Program-made: the position numbers and the translations under genes
Notes under the pieces: generated by a model
What the model saw: the letters and a program-made list of their open reading frames with translations, nothing else
Told to the model about the DNA's origin: nothing
The model's database searches: none
Shown here: positions 52,267 through 62,301 of the stretch, in pieces
Numbering within the stretch: the first letter of the stretch is position 1
Layout: each line of letters begins with the position of its first letter
Origin: an uncultured Flavobacteriaceae bacterium
GTDB lineage: Bacteria; Bacteroidota; Bacteroidia; Flavobacteriales; Flavobacteriaceae
Length of the DNA: 64,000 bases
Direction: 5' to 3'
Assembly: GCA_963932955.1 (NCBI GenBank)
Contig: CAWVRK010000004.1
Coordinates: 37,136 to 101,135, forward strand

Positions 52267-52537
52267 TTTTTATGGGTAGAACGATGAGTGGTATTGAGAA
52301 ATTGGAACCGTAGATTCATTTCTTTAAAAGTGTGCTGTTGGTTTGTTTTTCTAAAGAATTGAAATCACATCCAAATGAATTTATTGACAGTTTCCACTAT
52401 TTTAAAAAGACTTTGCTATTAACAAAAAAAGGGGGGGTAAAAATATTCTTCGTACATTTATAGTGTTATTGCGCTTTTCAATACTGTGCAAATTTTTGAA
52501 TGATAATTGCAAGTTATTTTGCCTTTTAATTTTTTAT

Positions 52538-53890
52538 ATGAAAACACAAAAAAACCTTATTTTATTCTTGCCAATACTGTTGTTTGTCTTTTCGAGCTGT
52601 ACCCAAACGGTTTCTGATAAGTTACCGAAAGAAGACGACGCTTTGTCGATGGTCGCTGTCATGGACCTCTTGACGAGTCAATTTGACAACAGTGGCAATT
52701 TGAGACAAGATGAAAACCCGGTGGGAAACATTGTTTTTGATTTTTGCTTTAATTTTGTCTACCCCTTGGAACTTTCTTATAGCAGTGGCGCTACCAAAGA
52801 AGTTCTGAGTTTAGAAAATTTGCTTTTTGTATTGATTACCGACAGTTCTGAAGAACAGTCTGTAAACGGCATTGTATTTCCTTTTTCTGTAGAAGTCTTT
52901 AATTCCCAACGCGCTGCTATTGAAGTCGTCTCCATCCAAGATGTTGGTGAATTTGAAAGTCTGGTTGAAAATTGTGATTTTGAAAACGATCTCTTTTGCA
53001 TTGAAATTTACGCACCCGTATGTGTAAAGGTTTCGGATCCGGCAGGAGATGCATTTGTCATTACCTATCCAAACGCTTGCTATGCAGGATTGGACGGATT
53101 TACGGAAGAAGACTTTATAGAGGATTGCAAAGAAGGAACCAATAAAGGAGATCTTTTTGAAAGGAAGTGTTTTGAATTGGATTTCCCATTGACCATCAAA
53201 ACCGGAAGTGGCAAGTCCATTACATTGGAATCTGAGTTAGAATTAGAAAAAACGGTTTACCAGCTGTACCATTGGGAATACCAGTTTCCGATATCGATCA
53301 CAAAAGAAGACGGTTCCGAACAAATTCTTGAAAGTACAGAAAGTTTGAATGCTCTTTTGGAGGAATGCTATGGTGATTATTGGAAAACGGATTGCATGTG
53401 CACAAAAGAGTACAATCCTACCTGCATTCAAATCACCGACCCACTGAACCCAGAGAAAACCTATACTAAGTTGTTTTCAAATCATTGCGAGGCTATTTGC
53501 GCAGGATTTAAAGAAGAAGACTTTGTCAAATGTCCATCGACAGATGTGGAAGAAAATTACAAACTTTGGGAGTCTGCTGAAATAAAGTCCTACAGTTTTG
53601 ATTTGATGGTGAGTTGTTATTGTGAAATTCAAGAACCTTACCAAATACGGGTGATCAACGGAAAAGTTGAGCAAATCAAAGGCAACGAAGCTTGGGGCAG
53701 TGAAGGCATCCCGACTACGGTGGACGCATTGTTTGACACAATTCTCAAAAAACTAGAACAAAAGCCTTTCCATTACGAACTCAAATTTGATCCCAACTAC
53801 GGGTATCCTACAGATGTCTATTTTGACATGGTAGAAATGATGGCCGATGAAGAAATAGGTTACAGCATCTCTAATTTTAAGATTTTATAG
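52538..53890 (+). CDS. Lipoprotein with two Kazal-like domains and a C-terminal DUF6174-like domain
   Basis: Lipobox FSSC. Kazal loops CIEIYAPVC and CTKEYNPTC, each followed by TY.N.C or FSNHC. C-terminal Y....SCYC...FDPNYGYP...DEE.GY.ISNF. Confidence 0.75.
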   Translation: MKTQKNLILFLPILLFVFSSCTQTVSDKLPKEDDALSMVAVMDLLTSQFDNSGNLRQDENPVGNIVFDFCFNFVYPLELSYSSGATKEVLSLENLLFVLITDSSEEQSVNGIVFPFSVEVFNSQRAAIEVVSIQDVGEFESLVENCDFENDLFCIEIYAPVCVKVSDPAGDAFVITYPNACYAGLDGFTEEDFIEDCKEGTNKGDLFERKCFELDFPLTIKTGSGKSITLESELELEKTVYQLYHWEYQFPISITKEDGSEQILESTESLNALLEECYGDYWKTDCMCTKEYNPTCIQITDPLNPEKTYTKLFSNHCEAICAGFKEEDFVKCPSTDVEENYKLWESAEIKSYSFDLMVSCYCEIQEPYQIRVINGKVEQIKGNEAWGSEGIPTTVDALFDTILKKLEQKPFHYELKFDPNYGYPTDVYFDMVEMMADEEIGYSISNFKIL

Positions 53891-54208
53891 CTGTCACTAA
53901 ATGTACACATTGCGTTTTAAATAAGTCTTTAAAACACCCTGCCTCCTCCTTTTAAGTTGACAAGAGCCTTCTCGGTTTTTCTGTGTTTTTAAAGCTTGTT
54001 CTGAAACGACCAACACATTCGTTTTTTCAAGATAATTTCAAACAACTTTTTGACGCATCACCAAGCAATGCTTCTAAATTCATTGAGAAATTGACAGGAG
54101 GAGTTATCGGTTTTGGAATTTTATAGACTCTCGTTGGAGTTCTGATTGCGGCAATGGTAAGCAGAGAATTGGAAGGGATTGTCGCCAAAAAAAAGAATAA
54201 ACTTCATT

Positions 54209-55510
54209 TTAAAAACTTTTTACAAACGCTTTCATCAGGTCTGAATAACCCTCAAAGGAAGTGAGCGGCAAGGTGTCAGCACGGTCGTTAACATCATGGT
54301 AAGCGGCAATTCCCCCTAAGGTATAACTGTAAAAGCTGGGGACTTGAAAAGTATCAAAAGAACAATGGTCACTATTGCACGCAGGACCACGTGGTTTGAT
54401 TGCTTTTATGTAGCCTTGTTTTTGATTGAGTTCCTGCAGTGTCTTAAATTGATTGGGATAGGCTGTCGCATTGACTACTTGAATGCCTTTACTTCCTGTG
54501 CCTGCCAAATCAAAATTCAAAAGAAATTTGATGTTTTTCAGAGCGAAAGGAGGGTGGTCAACAAAATACTTTGATCCTAAAAGCCCGAGTTCTTCGGCAC
54601 CAAATGCGACAAATACCAACGAGTACTTGGGCCGATTTTCACTTATTGAAAAATACTTGGCAAGATCCAATAACAAAGCAACCCCACTAGCATTGTCATT
54701 GGCACCTGGAAAATAGGTGTTTTTACCCATGCGTCCAAGGTGGTCGTAATGGGCAGAGATAACAAGCAAAGAGTCGGAAGCATCGCGCCCTTTGAGAAAG
54801 CCGATGACATTTTGAGAACTTGTCTTTTTTATAAACCGGCTTTTGCTGTGAATGGACACTTGTTGCATGCTTTTGATGTTTGTTATTTTGCCAATGGTAA
54901 AAGATGGTTTTGCACTTTGAAAAGTACTGCCGTTCCAAGTCAGTTTTTTTGAAGAAAACACCAATGTGGCAGCAGCAGGATGTGCATCGGAATACCTGAG
55001 GAACCGAACGATTTCTAAGATTTTAGCAGCGGCTTGTTTGGACTGTGTCTCCAGGTCGTAGATGTCTATCAACAAGACTTTGTCTTTGGATTTATTGAGT
55101 TTTTGAACAAAGACATTTTCGTCCAACAAATCAGCTATTCCCAACACAATACAGTCATAGGTGCCTTTGAGTGAAGGGCTGCTCGGATCGATCAAATAGT
55201 CCTTTCCGGGTACTAAAGTTTTGCCGTCTATTTTCAAGTCCAAGGCTCCCGGTTGTGTGTTGACGCTGATAGGAAAGCTTTGCAAATAGCTGCTTCCAAA
55301 CTTTTGAAGTCCCCTTTTTTTAAATTCCTTTGCAAGGTATGCCGCAGCTTTTTTGTGGCCATTTTTCACATAAGCCCTTCCGTGCATTTCGGGAGCGCTC
55401 AAATCTTGAATCACCTTTCTTGCGGCCTCCAATTGTCCAAAAAGAGATGTGTGACTAATGAACGTGAGGATGCTAAAGAAAAAGAAAATAGGATTTTTGG
55501 AAAAAGACAT
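54209..55510 (-). CDS. M28 family metallopeptidase, secreted
   Basis: SAHYDHLG, GANDNASG, AEELGLLGS, NFD, SDH and YH.VND zinc/catalytic motifs are intact. Confidence 0.92.
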   Translation of the reverse strand: MSFSKNPIFFFFSILTFISHTSLFGQLEAARKVIQDLSAPEMHGRAYVKNGHKKAAAYLAKEFKKRGLQKFGSSYLQSFPISVNTQPGALDLKIDGKTLVPGKDYLIDPSSPSLKGTYDCIVLGIADLLDENVFVQKLNKSKDKVLLIDIYDLETQSKQAAAKILEIVRFLRYSDAHPAAATLVFSSKKLTWNGSTFQSAKPSFTIGKITNIKSMQQVSIHSKSRFIKKTSSQNVIGFLKGRDASDSLLVISAHYDHLGRMGKNTYFPGANDNASGVALLLDLAKYFSISENRPKYSLVFVAFGAEELGLLGSKYFVDHPPFALKNIKFLLNFDLAGTGSKGIQVVNATAYPNQFKTLQELNQKQGYIKAIKPRGPACNSDHCSFDTFQVPSFYSYTLGGIAAYHDVNDRADTLPLTSFEGYSDLMKAFVKSF

Positions 55511-56396: not shown

Positions 56397-57308
56397 ATGA
56401 AAGCATTGGTGATTTCAGGAGGAGGGAGCAAAGGCGCGTTTGCGGGAGGTGTAGCCGAGTATCTGATTTGTGAACAACACAAAAAATACGACATCTACAT
56501 TGGCACATCTACGGGCAGTCTTTTGATTTCTCACCTCGCTTTGGGAAAAACCCAAGAATTGAAAGCACTGTATACCAGCGTAAATCAAAAAACCATTTTT
56601 AGCAATAACCCATTTCGCATCAAGAAAGTACACGGCGAAAAAGTGGTCACAATCAATCACTTTCATGTGTTGTGGAATTTTATTCGCAAACGAAAGACTT
56701 TTGGAGAAAGTTATAATTTGAGAAAGCTGATTCGCAACAACATTCGGGAAAGTTATTTCAAGCAGTTGCAAGATTCTGATATGGATCTTGTGGTGACCGT
56801 TTCCAACCTGACTTTGAATGAGATTGAGTACAAGTCAATCAATGATTGGTCTTATGTCGAATTTTGTGATTGGATTTGGGCTTCTTGCAATTACGTTCCT
56901 TTTATGAGTTTGTACGAAAAGGACAATTGCCAATACGCAGATGGTGGTTTCGGTTGTTTGGTTCCCATTCGTGAAGCCATCCGAAGGGGAGCTACCGAGG
57001 TAGATGTAATTATTTTGGATACGGAAGTGACGCATTACAACCGACTCCCGGTAAAAAACCCTTTTTCACTGATTTCTCATATTTTTGATTTCACCTTGGG
57101 ACATGTAGAAAAGCACAATGTAACCATAGGCAAATTGGCTGCCAAGAACAACGGTGTTTCTTTGAATATGTTCTACACACCCTCTGTATTGACAACAAAT
57201 TCTTTGATTTTTGACCAAAAACAAATGACGGCTTGGTGGCAGGAAGGCTTTGAATATGCGGAAAAACGGTTTTACGAACAAACTGACCCTGTTCGTTTTG
57301 ACAACTGA
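56397..57308 (+). CDS. Patatin-like phospholipase
   Basis: SGGGSKG, GTSTG nucleophile motif and DGG catalytic Asp are intact. Confidence 0.93.
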   Translation: MKALVISGGGSKGAFAGGVAEYLICEQHKKYDIYIGTSTGSLLISHLALGKTQELKALYTSVNQKTIFSNNPFRIKKVHGEKVVTINHFHVLWNFIRKRKTFGESYNLRKLIRNNIRESYFKQLQDSDMDLVVTVSNLTLNEIEYKSINDWSYVEFCDWIWASCNYVPFMSLYEKDNCQYADGGFGCLVPIREAIRRGATEVDVIILDTEVTHYNRLPVKNPFSLISHIFDFTLGHVEKHNVTIGKLAAKNNGVSLNMFYTPSVLTTNSLIFDQKQMTAWWQEGFEYAEKRFYEQTDPVRFDN

Positions 57309-57416: not shown

Positions 57417-59873
57417 ATGCGTTTTCAGAAACAGATATGCTTGTTTTTTTTATCGTTTGCTCCTTTTTCAAATGCGCAGCAATCTTTACAAAACACCCAC
57501 ATTCCCAACACAACAATTGTTGAAAAACCCTTTGACCTCCATCACACTCAGCTAAAAATCCGCTTTGACTTTTCAGAAGAACGACTCTATGGCGAAGCGG
57601 TTCTTTCGGCGAGCCCTCATTTTTACAAAACCCAAAACATCGTTTTGGATGCTAAAAATATGACTGTCCAAAAAGTGAGCAGTTTGGACAAGGCACTTGA
57701 CTACCATTACGACGGGGAGCAAATACACATCGACCTGAACAGGATCTACCATCGAGAAGACACCCTGCAGCTCACGGTTGCTTACAGCGTCAAATCTCAA
57801 AAAACATTCAAAAAGTTAAATGAAACCGGAAGAAAAATTCCAGGCTTGAATTTTGTCAATCCCCTAGCGCTTCAAAAGAACATTCCCACGCAAATATGGA
57901 CACAAAGCATTGCAGACGCCAACAGTTTTTGGTTTCCGACACTAAACAGTCCCAATCAAATGACCCTTCAGGAAATATTCCTAACCGTCCCGGATTCGTT
58001 GACAACCCTGTCCAACGGAACGTTGGTTTCTAAAACGGCACTTCCCAATGGAGAACGCCAAGACCATTGGAAGTTAGGTCACAAACACGCTCCCCATTTG
58101 TTTTTTATAGCGGTAGGAGAATTTGCATTAATCAAAGAAGTCTGGAAAGGCAAAGATGTCAACTATTATGTAGAAAAAGACAAGGAAAACTTGGCAAAAA
58201 AAGTTTTTGGAAACACACCTCAAATGATGCAATTCTTCTCTGAAATTTCGGGAATTGATTTTGTTTGGGATCAATACAGTCAGGTGGTTGTTCGCAATCT
58301 TAAAGAAAAAGCGGAGGCTTATACAATGGTTTCTGTTTTTTCAGATGAAGCCTACCAATCTGAGGGAGATTTGGTGGATGGCAATTTGTGGGAGCCTGTC
58401 ATTGCAAACCGCTTATTCCAGCAATGGTTTGGGAGTTTTGTAAGTCCTAAAAGCTGGAGTGAAATGTCTTGGAACGAAGGTTTTGGAGAATACGCGGCGT
58501 ATTTGTGGATGGAGCAAAAACACGGACAAAACGCAGCAGATGCATACCTGCAAAAGATAACTGCTCTTTACAGGGCAAGTACAAACACGCAACAAAGTTT
58601 GGTGGAGCAAAATTCCGACAGCCAACTGCTCTTGAAAGAGGGAAGACAGGAAAAAGGGGCTTTGGTCCTTCACATGCTGAAAGACCTGCTCGGAGACAAA
58701 GCTTTTTTCAAAGGATTGCAGCAGTATTTAAAAACACATGCATATGCTACTACTGAAGCGGCGCAATTGCGAATGGCTTTTGAAGATGTGTCTGGAAAAG
58801 CATTGGGTTGGTTTTTCGACCAATGGTTTTTCAAGGGAGGGCATCCCGTAGTTCATGTTTCCTACGATTACAATTTGTTGGAAAAAACAGTGACGGTTAA
58901 TTTGAGACAACAAGGCGAAGTGTTTAATTTTCCCTTGAAGATTGTGCTACATGAGAATGGGCTTAAAAGGGTGCAGAAGGTATTTGTCAAGGAAGAAGAG
59001 AGTTCTTTTACTTTTGCTTACAACAAAACCCCTCAATGGGTACAAGTCAATGCTGATCATGTGGTGTTGGGTGATTTTATCGAAAACAAAACACAGAAAG
59101 CCTACATATACCAGTACAAGCATGCAGCGCATATTGCAGATCGCAAAGAAGCATTGCTTGCCCTGTCTAAGCACCAAGCGGACAAAGAAGTCTTCGAACT
59201 TCTTGTTTCGGCATTTGACGATGTCTATGCGCCCTTGCAGATAATCGCATTGGAACACATTGACCTCAGTTTCAAATACTCAAAGAGACAGGTCATCAAA
59301 AAAATTGAATCCCTTGCTAAAAGCAGTCAAAACAATGCTGTAAAAGCAGCTGCCATCAAGCTATTGGGAAAATTGGTGTATTTTGATTACCAATATTTCT
59401 TTGAAAAATCTGTAGACAGCCCATCCAATCTGGTCAAAGAAAGTGCCTTGGAGGCATTGTATTACTTAGATGCAAAATCAGCGATGGACAAGGCGAAATT
59501 CCTGCCCTCAAGCGTCAAAGAATCCATCGCCATTCCACTCACCAAATTGTATATAGAAGCCAAAGAAACCTCTGAAATGGCGTTTGTTGCCAAATACATC
59601 GTACAAGGTTTGTACCTAAGCAATGACAAAAAAGCTAAAGAACTCTACAAAAACGCGTTTATATGGGTGGCCACTTCAAACAACGTGGCAGCAATAACGA
59701 ATTTGGCCAACGACCTCGTTGTTAAAGGACAAGAATACCGCAGCTACAACTTCCATTTAGAGGCGATTCGCATGCTTAGAGAAATCGCCTACGAGCAGGA
59801 AAGACGTCAGAATTCACACCAAAAAGAACTGGTAACAATAGCAAATAGCGCATTGTCACAATTGATCGAATAA
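57417..59873 (+). CDS. M1 aminopeptidase homolog with HEAT-like C-terminus; catalytic motifs lost
   Basis: Signal peptide, WFPT...PN, TLSNG, HAP.LFF..VGEF, YSQ, WFG, NEGF and KG..VLHML show the M1 scaffold. HEXXH reads NRLFQ and GAMEN reads KAEAY. Confidence 0.9.
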   Translation: MRFQKQICLFFLSFAPFSNAQQSLQNTHIPNTTIVEKPFDLHHTQLKIRFDFSEERLYGEAVLSASPHFYKTQNIVLDAKNMTVQKVSSLDKALDYHYDGEQIHIDLNRIYHREDTLQLTVAYSVKSQKTFKKLNETGRKIPGLNFVNPLALQKNIPTQIWTQSIADANSFWFPTLNSPNQMTLQEIFLTVPDSLTTLSNGTLVSKTALPNGERQDHWKLGHKHAPHLFFIAVGEFALIKEVWKGKDVNYYVEKDKENLAKKVFGNTPQMMQFFSEISGIDFVWDQYSQVVVRNLKEKAEAYTMVSVFSDEAYQSEGDLVDGNLWEPVIANRLFQQWFGSFVSPKSWSEMSWNEGFGEYAAYLWMEQKHGQNAADAYLQKITALYRASTNTQQSLVEQNSDSQLLLKEGRQEKGALVLHMLKDLLGDKAFFKGLQQYLKTHAYATTEAAQLRMAFEDVSGKALGWFFDQWFFKGGHPVVHVSYDYNLLEKTVTVNLRQQGEVFNFPLKIVLHENGLKRVQKVFVKEEESSFTFAYNKTPQWVQVNADHVVLGDFIENKTQKAYIYQYKHAAHIADRKEALLALSKHQADKEVFELLVSAFDDVYAPLQIIALEHIDLSFKYSKRQVIKKIESLAKSSQNNAVKAAAIKLLGKLVYFDYQYFFEKSVDSPSNLVKESALEALYYLDAKSAMDKAKFLPSSVKESIAIPLTKLYIEAKETSEMAFVAKYIVQGLYLSNDKKAKELYKNAFIWVATSNNVAAITNLANDLVVKGQEYRSYNFHLEAIRMLREIAYEQERRQNSHQKELVTIANSALSQLIE

Positions 59874-59931: not shown

Positions 59932-60357
59932 CTACAAGGATTGTTTGTTGGGTGTATAAGCTTCAAAAGTTCCATCTACATAAAACACAAGTACTTTTTC
60001 AATTCCTATGTCTTTTGGCAAATATGCTGAGGCTGTGGTTGCTTGTGACAGATCTGGAAATCCCAATTCGGAGATTTTGTGACTCAATTGGTTTTTTGTT
60101 TTTGGGCTAGGGGACTGACTACCAGGATTGTTTTTTGGAAAAACACCCAATCCCTTTAACAGCCATTGCAAATCAACCTCTTTGTATGTTTCTGTTATTT
60201 TCAACACAAAATCCAAGCTAGGTTTATTTCTTCCAGATGCGATGTGGGAGATGCTAGACCGCGGCACTTCGATAGATTCTGCAAATGCAGCTGCAGACAG
60301 GCTGTAATAATCCATGATTTTTTTTAGTCTTGTAGCAAAGGCTTGAGTGTTTAACAT
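59932..60357 (-). CDS. XRE-family helix-turn-helix transcriptional regulator
   Basis: RLKKIM...LS...FA..I.V.RSSISHI.SGRNKPSLDFVLKI...VDLQWLL.G. Confidence 0.92.
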   Translation of the reverse strand: MLNTQAFATRLKKIMDYYSLSAAAFAESIEVPRSSISHIASGRNKPSLDFVLKITETYKEVDLQWLLKGLGVFPKNNPGSQSPSPKTKNQLSHKISELGFPDLSQATTASAYLPKDIGIEKVLVFYVDGTFEAYTPNKQSL

Positions 60358-60375: not shown

Positions 60376-60642
60376 TTACAAATGTAGTTTTTTTTACTCA
60401 CAGGGCAAATCTATTTTTAAGAACTGATTATTTATTAAACTAAAACTTTACTTAGGTAAATTCAAAAGACTCATTTACAATAATTTAAACATAATATAGC
60501 TTGTTATTACTACCTTTGTTAGAAAATGAAACACAAGGGAAGAACCTCTTTGGGAGCGCAAGTGAAATTTGTTTACATATTTAAACATAAAGCTTGTCGG
60601 AGATAATTACATTTGTAAACACAAGATTATTTACATTTGTAA
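60376..60642. promoter_or_regulatory. Divergent promoter region with repeated TTACA-WW-TGTAA operator-like palindromes
   Basis: TTACATTTGTAA at 60607-60618 and 60631-60642, and TTACAAATGTAG at 60376-60387. Each embeds a TACATTTG (TAnnTTTG) -7 element. Confidence 0.65.
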
Positions 60643-60643
60643 T

Positions 60644-61738
60644 ATGAAAAAAATACCCCTGTCACTCATAGAAAACTGGTATGCGAACCATTATGAAAAA
60701 GCGCTTTCTGGACGTCGCATTCTCTGCGACACCATCACTCCGTTGTTAAACGCGATGGACAGTTCCTTGTTTTCAATCAAACAATTAGGGAGCTCAGAAA
60801 AAAACACCCCCATTTATTCTGTTCAAATTGGTAATGGGTCACGAAAAATCTTGCTTTGGTCTCAAATGCATGGGAACGAAAGCACGGGCACCAAAGCGAT
60901 GTTTGACTTGTTTAAGTTCCTAGACGGTCCTGAAAACTTAGTCCATATAAAAGCAGCTGTTCTAAACAAGTGCAGCCTTGTTTTTGTGCCCATACTAAAT
61001 CCTGACGGAGCCGATGCCTTTACACGTGTCAATGCCAATGGGATTGATTTGAACAGGGATGCCGTAGCTTTGGTTGCCAAGGAAAGCAAGCTTTTGCGTA
61101 ATTTGTTGGACACTTTCAATCCTGAATTTTGTTTTAACCTTCACGACCAACGAACCATATTCAACGTCGAGGGCACCAAAAACCCTGCTGCTGTCTCTTT
61201 TTTAGCACCATCTGAAGACTTAAAGCGAACTTTGACCAAGGGACGTACAGAAACCATGAGCGTAATTAGCTCTATGAATGCACTCTTGTCTGAGCTCATT
61301 CCGAATCACATCGGTCGTTATACGGATGAATTTTACCCAACCGCCACTGGGGACAATTTTCAAAAAATGGGCCACAACACTATTTTAATTGAAGCGGGTC
61401 ATTATTACGACGACTATGATCGAGAATTGGTGCGAAAATTCAATTTTTACGCAATCTTGCAAGGTCTTTATTTCTTGAGCGAAACAGATAACTTCTCCAA
61501 CTACGCACCCTATTTTGGCATTCCTAATAATGCGAGCGATTGTTTCGATATCATTTGTAGAAATGTACTAACAGAAGAAGGAACGGTATTAGATATTGCT
61601 TTTCAGTACGATTATATAGTCAAAAACAAGCAAGTGCATTTGGAGAAAAAAGAAGCCGCAAGAGGCGACCTTTCTGCCAACATTGGCCACAAAGAACTTG
61701 ACTTGAAGAAACAACCTTTAAAAAACATGATTTTTTGA
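60644..61738 (+). CDS. M14 family zinc carboxypeptidase
   Basis: SQMHGNESTGT, LNPDGA, NANGIDLNRD, FNLHDQ, LIEAGH. Start placed at MKKIPLS. Confidence 0.9.
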   Translation: MKKIPLSLIENWYANHYEKALSGRRILCDTITPLLNAMDSSLFSIKQLGSSEKNTPIYSVQIGNGSRKILLWSQMHGNESTGTKAMFDLFKFLDGPENLVHIKAAVLNKCSLVFVPILNPDGADAFTRVNANGIDLNRDAVALVAKESKLLRNLLDTFNPEFCFNLHDQRTIFNVEGTKNPAAVSFLAPSEDLKRTLTKGRTETMSVISSMNALLSELIPNHIGRYTDEFYPTATGDNFQKMGHNTILIEAGHYYDDYDRELVRKFNFYAILQGLYFLSETDNFSNYAPYFGIPNNASDCFDIICRNVLTEEGTVLDIAFQYDYIVKNKQVHLEKKEAARGDLSANIGHKELDLKKQPLKNMIF

Positions 61739-61821: not shown

Positions 61822-62301
61822 ATGAAAAAATACATTTTAGATGAAGTTGATCACCAAATATTAGACATGTTGATTGACAACGCACGAACTCCTTTTACAG
61901 ACATTGCAAAAAAACTATTGGTTTCTGCCGGAACCATTCATGTTCGTGTCAAGAAAATGGAAGAGGAGGGAATTATCAAAGGATCCACGCTCACTTTAGA
62001 TTACGAAAAAATGGGCTATGCTTTTATCGCTCATATTGGAGTTTACTTGGAGAAAACATCCATGACCAAAGAAGTGATCAGTAGTTTGAGACTGATTCCA
62101 AACGTAACGGTTGCTTATGTAACGGCTGGAAAGTTCAACATCTTTTGCAAGATTAGAGCCAAAGACACAGAAGATGCAAAAAACATCATTTTTAAAATTG
62201 ATGACATCTCAGGGGTCAACAGAACCGAGACGATGATTTCTTTAGAAGAAAGCATCAACGATAAGAAAAGAATGATGCATGCAATTTTTAGAGACTACTA
62301 G
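61822..62301 (+). CDS. Lrp/AsnC family transcriptional regulator
   Basis: LDEVDHQIL..L..NARTPFTDIAKKL.VS.GTIHVRVKKME..GIIKG, TAGKFNI. Confidence 0.93.
   Translation: MKKYILDEVDHQILDMLIDNARTPFTDIAKKLLVSAGTIHVRVKKMEEEGIIKGSTLTLDYEKMGYAFIAHIGVYLEKTSMTKEVISSLRLIPNVTVAYVTAGKFNIFCKIRAKDTEDAKNIIFKIDDISGVNRTETMISLEESINDKKRMMHAIFRDY

Follow-up and report, generated by a model that had tools for sequence, protein, structure and literature searches.

Can a secreted peptidase gene outlive the loss of its catalytic site, and if so, what keeps it? This question is raised by a locus on a 64,000-nucleotide stretch of DNA from an uncultured Flavobacteriaceae bacterium (contig CAWVRK010000004.1 of assembly GCA_963932955.1, positions 37,136 to 101,135), hereafter called the window. 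A complete open reading frame (ORF) at 57417-59873 on the forward strand appears, from the reading of the frame, Pfam and a structure model, to encode an exported M1-fold pseudopeptidase of 818 residues (P0001). We argue that this protein is probably a lineage-specific pseudopeptidase, kept for a peptidase-independent role that was already present in its active ancestor.

The 818 codons run without interruption. Pfam recognizes an M1 N-terminal beta domain (Peptidase_M1_N, PF17900; residues 43-219, 57543-58073; 29.3 bits, cut-off 25.8), also delimited in the ortholog alignment, and a thermolysin-like catalytic domain (Peptidase_M1, PF01433; residues 266-470, 58212-58826; E-value 9e-27, 94.5 bits, cut-off 27.7). 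Both domains exceed their gathering scores, and by this homology the protein belongs to MEROPS family M1; its scores for the NCBIfam PepN and LTA4H equivalogs lie far under their cut-offs. A signal peptide of the Sec/signal peptidase I type occupies residues 1-20 (57417-57476). It was assigned by eye rather than by a predictor, from a basic n-region, a hydrophobic core (ICLFFLSFAPF) and a cleavage site between SNA and QQ. The residue after the cut, Q21, is invariant in 51 orthologs and conforms to the Bacteroidetes Q-rule for signal peptidase I substrates (PMC5837995). Neither a lipobox nor a C-terminal domain of the type IX secretion system is present in the protein, whose C-terminus is helical, and a soluble periplasmic location is therefore predicted.

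The former active site was read from an alignment of 121 ortholog sequences and from an alignment to tricorn factor F3. The zinc motif HELFHH has become NRLFQQ (residues 331-336, 58407-58424), its HExxH part reading NRLFQ (58407-58421) through H331N, E332R and H335Q, with H336Q besides. The exopeptidase motif GAMEN reads KAEAY (residues 298-302, 58308-58322) through G298K, M300E, E301A and N302Y. Q411 (58647-58649) replaces the Tyr that stabilizes the transition state, and the loop before it has a one-residue deletion, in the column of Y399. The third zinc-ligand Glu, E354 of WNEGF (58476-58478), is retained exactly 18 residues after position 335 and is the sole zinc ligand left; some members of the protein's clade have Lys there. 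In the HMMER alignment to F3 (PDB 3q7j), IA-NRLFQ-QWFG lies over IA-HEIAH-QWFG, WNEGF over LNESF and rqeKGA over syGKGA. Where active M1 enzymes have HExxH-X18-E, GxMEN and the Tyr, the window protein thus has NRLFQ-X18-E, KAEAY and Y411Q. For brevity, we call proteins with such replacements dead and orthologs that keep the motifs active. The N-terminal beta domain has lost its conserved shell of E165/E167, Y145 and C171, with E167, the N-terminus anchor in this domain, being Asp or Asn in the dead clade. The PF01433 score falls to 94-98 bits in dead proteins, compared with about 160 bits in active orthologs of the genus. These alignments show the canonical M1 catalytic apparatus to be gone from the predicted protein, which is an M1 homolog of the kind that MEROPS calls a non-peptidase homologue, and which has the defining feature of a pseudoenzyme, a homolog of an enzyme family without the essential catalytic residues. 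A preliminary description of this DNA, made from its letters alone, had given the same replaced motifs, the lost Tyr and the Glu at X18, and its residues and coordinates are all correct. It had also reported an intact, secreted 818-residue ORF with an M1 scaffold, which the ORF, Pfam and signal peptide readings bear out.

The scaffold itself is predicted to be whole. An AlphaFold2 model of P0001, computed with a 51-sequence alignment (predicted local distance difference test score, pLDDT, 84; predicted template modelling score, pTM, 0.82), comprises the four domains of the M1 architecture. Domain III is modelled as an immunoglobulin (Ig)-like beta sandwich (residues 478-555, 58848-59081), which Pfam finds to be TAF2_3rd-like in some orthologs, and domain IV, delimited from the model and from conservation, as a HEAT-like helical domain (residues 560-817, 59094-59867); some orthologs also match Pfam HEAT_2. 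A Foldseek search with the model returned IRAP, ERAP1/2, F3, PepN and TAF2 at E-values of 1e-35 to 1e-31 and template modelling (TM) scores of 0.6-0.7, the highest query TM-score (0.70) being that of TAF2 (7edx_B).

The simplest explanation of these replacements would be a sequencing or assembly artefact or a mis-called frame, and we reject it as scarcely conceivable. The identical 818-codon frame with its substitutions is present on ENA, JGI and Tara contigs and in the genome of another species (G007), and five DNA loci from independent assemblies carry the motif replacements. Because at least 27 independent full-length copies share them, the gene is not an assembly error, one of the outcomes by which the preliminary description had said that its reading would fall.

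Full-length relatives of 811-834 residues, 41-54% identical to the window protein, number in the hundreds in Flavobacteriaceae (Flavicella, Polaribacter, Tenacibaculum, Lutibacter and many metagenome sequences). About 222 active orthologs, with a common length and synteny, all keep HExxHH-WFG and GAMEN. HExxH and/or GxMEN is missing in only 8 of the 230 family members collected (six without both, one without only GxMEN), 7 of which fall in two tight clades, so that the motif loss is, in this alignment, far above chance. The eight are P0001 to P0004 (87-92% mutual identity), P0086, P0122 and P0123, and P0017. In 40 related genomes, every ortholog has HELFHHWFG and GAMEN save that of the sister species G007 (88% identical to the window protein), and the active-type orthologs include those of ten other species of the same GTDB genus. 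The alignment to flavobacterial orthologs that the preliminary description had proposed thus came out in its favor, the orthologs being of the active type. The loss seen in the window protein is restricted to one Flavicella-like lineage, which counts about 90 metagenome sequences besides the window genome and that of a sister species. From the three 90% clusters of this dead clade, which comprise 92 members, we read 39. Of these, 27 are full-length, and each of the 27, down to 82% identity, has N331, Q335, Q336, A301, Y302 and Q411. Several positions of the former site are polymorphic in the clade (R/H332, E/K354, K/N/D298, E/K300 and D/N167).

Three further observations concern the distribution and naming of such proteins. 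P0017 (820 residues) has HELFH and E354, together with G298D at the Gly of GAMEN and Y411G; its end branch measures 0.35 compared with 0.15 for its sister, and it may represent an early stage of the same loss. In the wider Bacteroidota family, 2 of 149 representatives of 50% clusters (P0241 and P0290) are without HExxH, reading for example AAQIFKQWFG, and by these motifs catalytic-site loss is rare but recurrent there. Public databases annotate the dead proteins as "aminopeptidase N" or "M1 family metallopeptidase [Flavicella sp.]" (e.g. MDG1503080.1), names that are misleading for function.

Is the gene merely decaying? The ratio of non-synonymous to synonymous substitution rates (dN/dS), which the preliminary description had proposed to compute, was estimated by the Nei-Gojobori method (NG86) among five DNA copies of the dead clade with dS of 0.2-0.63. 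It is 0.13-0.18 over the whole gene, not about 1, and is similarly low in each part (N domain 0.17, catalytic domain 0.155, C domain 0.12, former pocket 0.17), with no 60-codon window above 0.24. In the most divergent pair, the deficit of non-synonymous changes reaches p=2e-63 for the whole gene and p=3e-11 for residues 290-420 (Fisher test). For scale, neighboring genes give 0.01-0.04 (a patatin), 0.21-0.29 (an M28 peptidase) and 0.21-0.27 (a 197-residue protein). The window copy and the 26 other full-length copies contain no stops at a dN/dS of about 0.15, and in a neutral simulation the probability of finding no stop is 0.004 at only 5% divergence. Since dN/dS is 0.13-0.18 in all domains and open frames are unlikely under neutral drift, this is not a decaying gene. 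The purifying selection and the intact frames in many lineages are those expected of a pseudoenzyme.

Purifying selection could also act on a protein that has no function and has simply not been lost yet, if the only remaining pressure were against misfolding or toxicity of an expressed periplasmic product. Several observations point this way and weigh against a retained function. The dead-clade dN/dS is 2-3 times that of active orthologs (0.05-0.08, values that are indicative only because dS is saturated at >1.4), and constraint is thus relaxed; relative to the patatin, M1 divergence is about 2.5 times higher within the dead clade than in active pairs. Two of the approximately 39 members read may be disrupted alleles. 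On one metagenome contig (L036:2630-5089, 99.3% identical to L005), three 1-nucleotide insertions, at codons 137, 143 and 717, split the dead M1 gene into three ORFs, the four neighboring genes being intact; the insertions may be assembly indel errors or mark a strain-level pseudogene. The other, the short member P0401, diverges past residue 218 and is a possible strain-level pseudogene. Shortened cluster members are mostly contig-edge fragments, such as P0410, which starts at base 25 of its contig. We nevertheless regard a functionless protein as distinctly improbable. The dead form has persisted to a pairwise dS of about 0.6 and 82% identity, in at least two GTDB species and at least 27 intact copies, and a useless 2.4-kb gene is unlikely in a streamlined genome of 1.85 Mb. 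Polar, surface-type invariants are kept in domains III and IV, and a second dead clade, described below, behaves likewise with a dN/dS of about 0.09.

The changes are not spread evenly over the protein. The stem of the dead clade is the longest branch of the maximum-likelihood tree (0.75 substitutions per site), and it measures 1.09 in the N-terminal and catalytic domains versus 0.39 in the C domain, an approximately threefold difference. At equal patatin identity (about 0.72), M1 identity is 0.46-0.50 between dead and active proteins versus 0.57-0.67 between active ones. Where active orthologs agree to at least 90%, the N-terminal and catalytic domains show replacements in 35-36% of the columns, the C domain in only 8%. 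Within the dead clade, 23 of the 61 changed conserved columns (38%) vary, compared with 29.5% for the least constrained class of columns, and only 10 of the 153 kept ones do (6.5%). Acceleration and present drift thus concentrate in the active-site shell, the scaffold and domains III and IV keeping their ancestral constraints. Within the dead protein, constraint is strongest in domain IV, and the conservation of the scaffold positions and of the C-terminal Ig-like/HEAT half equals that in active orthologs. Since the changed columns drift and residues of the former site are polymorphic, no new conserved site stands where the zinc site was.

This pattern bears on the possibility that the protein is still an enzyme, acting on peptides or on another substrate through a non-canonical site built, for example, around another metal or the residual E354. 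Most members do have E354 and the WFG / N353 / F356 core, and cases in which catalytic residues migrated are known from the review literature on pseudoenzymes (PMC10211241). We consider such activity very unlikely, as the clade conserves no alternative set of ligands, N331, Q335 and Q336 would coordinate zinc poorly, residues differ among clade members at positions 332, 354, 298 and 300, and the whole active-site shell is relaxed. The loops lining the site are also modelled with lower confidence than in an active ortholog: pLDDT is below 50 in loops 130-140, 224-226, 340-348 and 399-405 of the dead protein, which flank the former site, whereas P0014, modelled with the same 51-sequence alignment, reaches a pLDDT of 89.6 with no segment below 50. 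This last point is weak evidence, the two models having been compared by pLDDT and secondary structure only.

A second lineage has, by its sequences, lost the same site independently and is under purifying selection. It consists of P0086, P0122 and P0123 (77-79% mutual identity), lies in a Polaribacter-like part of the tree, and is sister to the active P0052. Its proteins read IAN[AG]LFHH, E301A, G298T/P and Y411S/G, with a variable E354, and their dN/dS is 0.09-0.10 in all domains; the P0086 branch measures 0.49 versus 0.08 for its sister. Of the 213 columns that 222 active orthologs conserve to at least 97%, both dead clades have replaced the residue in 17 (odds ratio 6.6, p=2.6e-5). The columns released twice include S135, E165, E167, K286, R293, S297, G298, E301, T304, H331, E332, S410 and Y411, and the replacements H331N and E301A are identical in the two clades. 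The C domain shows the converse, with 41 of its 43 conserved columns unchanged in both clades, among them the polar H476, D484, N486, Q498, K558, Q587, K620, K623, Y682, N762, D766 and Q794; K620 and K623 are encoded within 59274-59285. The second clade was found at four loci (L029:336-2789, L030:323-2776, L033:1695-4175 and L034:8001-10454). Two of these, L033 and L034, have two DUF4252 genes upstream of the dead M1 gene, and L034 has an extracytoplasmic function (ECF) sigma factor as well.

Two independent losses also help to judge whether the protein took on a new, lineage-specific role after catalysis was lost, for instance in sensing, in the regulation of another peptidase or in partnership with the patatin. 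The very long stem (0.75-1.09 substitutions per site, depending on the part) could include adaptive change, 38 of the 61 changed conserved columns are fixed in the clade, and the gene directly upstream encodes a patatin-like phospholipase of 303 residues (56397-57308, forward strand). Against such a gain of function, which we hold to be unlikely, the changed columns vary no less than those of the least constrained class, key residues of the former site (R/H332, E/K354, K/N/D298) are polymorphic, and the independent clade released overlapping positions with different replacement residues. Nor is a partnership with the patatin, suggested in the preliminary description, supported. The order patatin-M1-HTH(-), in which a helix-turn-helix (HTH) gene follows on the reverse strand, is conserved across the genus whatever the state of the M1 gene, so that the synteny is common to active members and older than the loss; the patatin is not co-accelerated with the M1 protein, and in the second dead clade the two genes are not adjacent.

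Since the canonical apparatus is gone and the intact gene is under purifying selection, we infer that the window protein does not cleave peptides by the M1 mechanism and serves a role independent of the active site. The active ancestor probably had that role already, since the two clades released coinciding positions and what they kept are the positions that active enzymes conserve. The sequences show that, at the stem of the Flavicella-like lineage, an ordinary secreted aminopeptidase-N-type enzyme lost its GAMEN motif, both His zinc ligands, the catalytic Glu, the Glu residues that anchor the substrate N-terminus, and the Tyr that stabilizes the transition state. On our account, the event would be the loss of one of two ancestral functions, the other being a peptidase-independent role that pre-exists in active orthologs. 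The closed M1 clamshell would bind a partner or a ligand chiefly through domains III and IV, and the dead proteins would retain only this binding or scaffolding role. They would still be made and needed, with the former active-site shell drifting freely. In that role the clamshell, together with the Ig-like/HEAT half, would probably bind or act as a scaffold. The core of the preliminary description, an intact M1 scaffold that is catalytically dead and selected for a non-catalytic role, is thus supported by the motif loss, dN/dS and the intact copies. Its suggestion of a peptide-binding or decoy role fares less well, in that a canonical N-terminus-binding decoy is unlikely with the anchors E301 and E167 lost and the former pocket drifting.

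The same comparison allows a wider proposal, to which we give slightly less than an even chance. The whole TAF2-like (M1 + Ig-like + HEAT) periplasmic family of about 815 residues in Flavobacteriaceae may have an important peptidase-independent function, such as the binding of peptide or protein partners by domains III/IV, with the dead clades serving as natural separation-of-function alleles. If this is true, the dead clades bring a concealed role to light and record, at genus-level resolution, how a pseudoenzyme arises.

The closest known counterparts are the active Flavobacteriaceae orthologs, secreted proteins of about 815 residues annotated "M1 family metallopeptidase / aminopeptidase N" (Flavicella sediminum P0014, Flavicella marina P0018, Polaribacter, Tenacibaculum, Lutibacter). 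They share with the window protein the length, the Q21 signal peptide, the four domains and the gene order patatin-M1-HTH(-)-M14-AsnC, but they keep HExxHH-WFG, GAMEN, E354 and Y411, of which the window protein has lost HExxHH, GAMEN and Y411. Tricorn factor F3, E. coli PepN, ERAP1/2, IRAP and LTA4H resemble it in fold and domain order (sequence E-values down to 9e-20, Foldseek E-values down to 4e-35); in these zinc enzymes HExxH-X18-E, GxMEN and the Tyr are all present, whereas the window protein retains the distal Glu only. TAF2 (TFIID subunit 2) likewise combines M1 N-terminal, thermolysin-like and Ig-like domains with HEAT repeats and has no catalysis, and a TAF2 PDB sequence matches the window protein at E=1.9e-14. 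The analogy with TAF2 drawn in the preliminary description is apt, given the M1 + Ig-like + HEAT layout of the ortholog group and the best TM-score, but the likeness is one of fold and architecture and not of membership in the eukaryotic TFIID family, the closest relatives being secreted bacterial peptidases. TAF2 is nuclear, about 1200 residues long, anciently inactive and part of a transcription complex, whereas the window protein is exported and bacterial, and its loss falls within a genus-level lineage.

Pseudoenzymes are well known, and almost all pseudo-metallopeptidases studied to our knowledge are eukaryotic. We searched the literature for a described bacterial M1 pseudopeptidase and found none. 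A 2024 review of pseudometallopeptidases lists yeast Tma108 as its sole M1 entry and has no bacterial case (PMC11266112). Tma108, like the window protein, is an M1-family protein proposed to bind rather than cleave, but according to Table 2 of that review (PMC11266112) it retains HExxH-X18-E and uses its substrate pocket, whereas the window protein is without a zinc site and N-terminus anchors and its pocket is drifting. What makes the present case valuable is that the loss is recent, happened twice and concerns an ortholog group that is otherwise active. With active orthologs of about 50% identity in the same genus and gene neighborhood, and with a second independent loss, it amounts to a natural experiment in which about 60 positions constrained only by catalysis can be separated from those that serve something else. 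It provides a direct test of whether abundant marine flavobacterial "aminopeptidases" hold a second, non-catalytic job. Annotating the dead proteins as aminopeptidases also inflates the set of peptidases that genomes and metagenomes suggest for this marine lineage.

As for other peptidases in the genome and around the locus, the preliminary description had proposed a search for an active M1 paralog, and the window genome (1.85 Mb) encodes three further M1 paralogs (619, 551 and 745 residues), all with HExxH. The genus core has the same four M1 genes, and a new M1 paralog that might compensate for the loss was sought in the window genome and the genus core and was not found. Downstream of the M1 gene, a convergent HTH_3 regulator gene (59932-60357, reverse strand) is conserved in the sampled genus relatives and in both dead clades. 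It is followed on the forward strand by an M14 carboxypeptidase-like gene with an HGNE motif and no signal peptide (60644-61738) and by an AsnC/Lrp-type regulator gene (61822-62301), the last gene of a conserved M1-HTH-M14-AsnC block that the second dead clade also keeps, with the HTH gene reversed. Peptidase-related genes are abundant around 52463-55510, where a DUF6174 lipoprotein gene (52463-53890) precedes an M28 aminopeptidase gene (54209-55510, reverse strand), whose metal-ligand motifs are intact and whose dN/dS, given above, is rather high. A general decay of peptidases in the neighborhood was considered and rejected, the M28 protein keeping its His/Asp/Glu-Glu/Asp ligand motifs and the M14 protein its HGNE. 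Finally, the M14 ORF is listed from a TTG at 60569 (60569-61738); its relatives are called at 364 residues, which matches the ATG at 60644.

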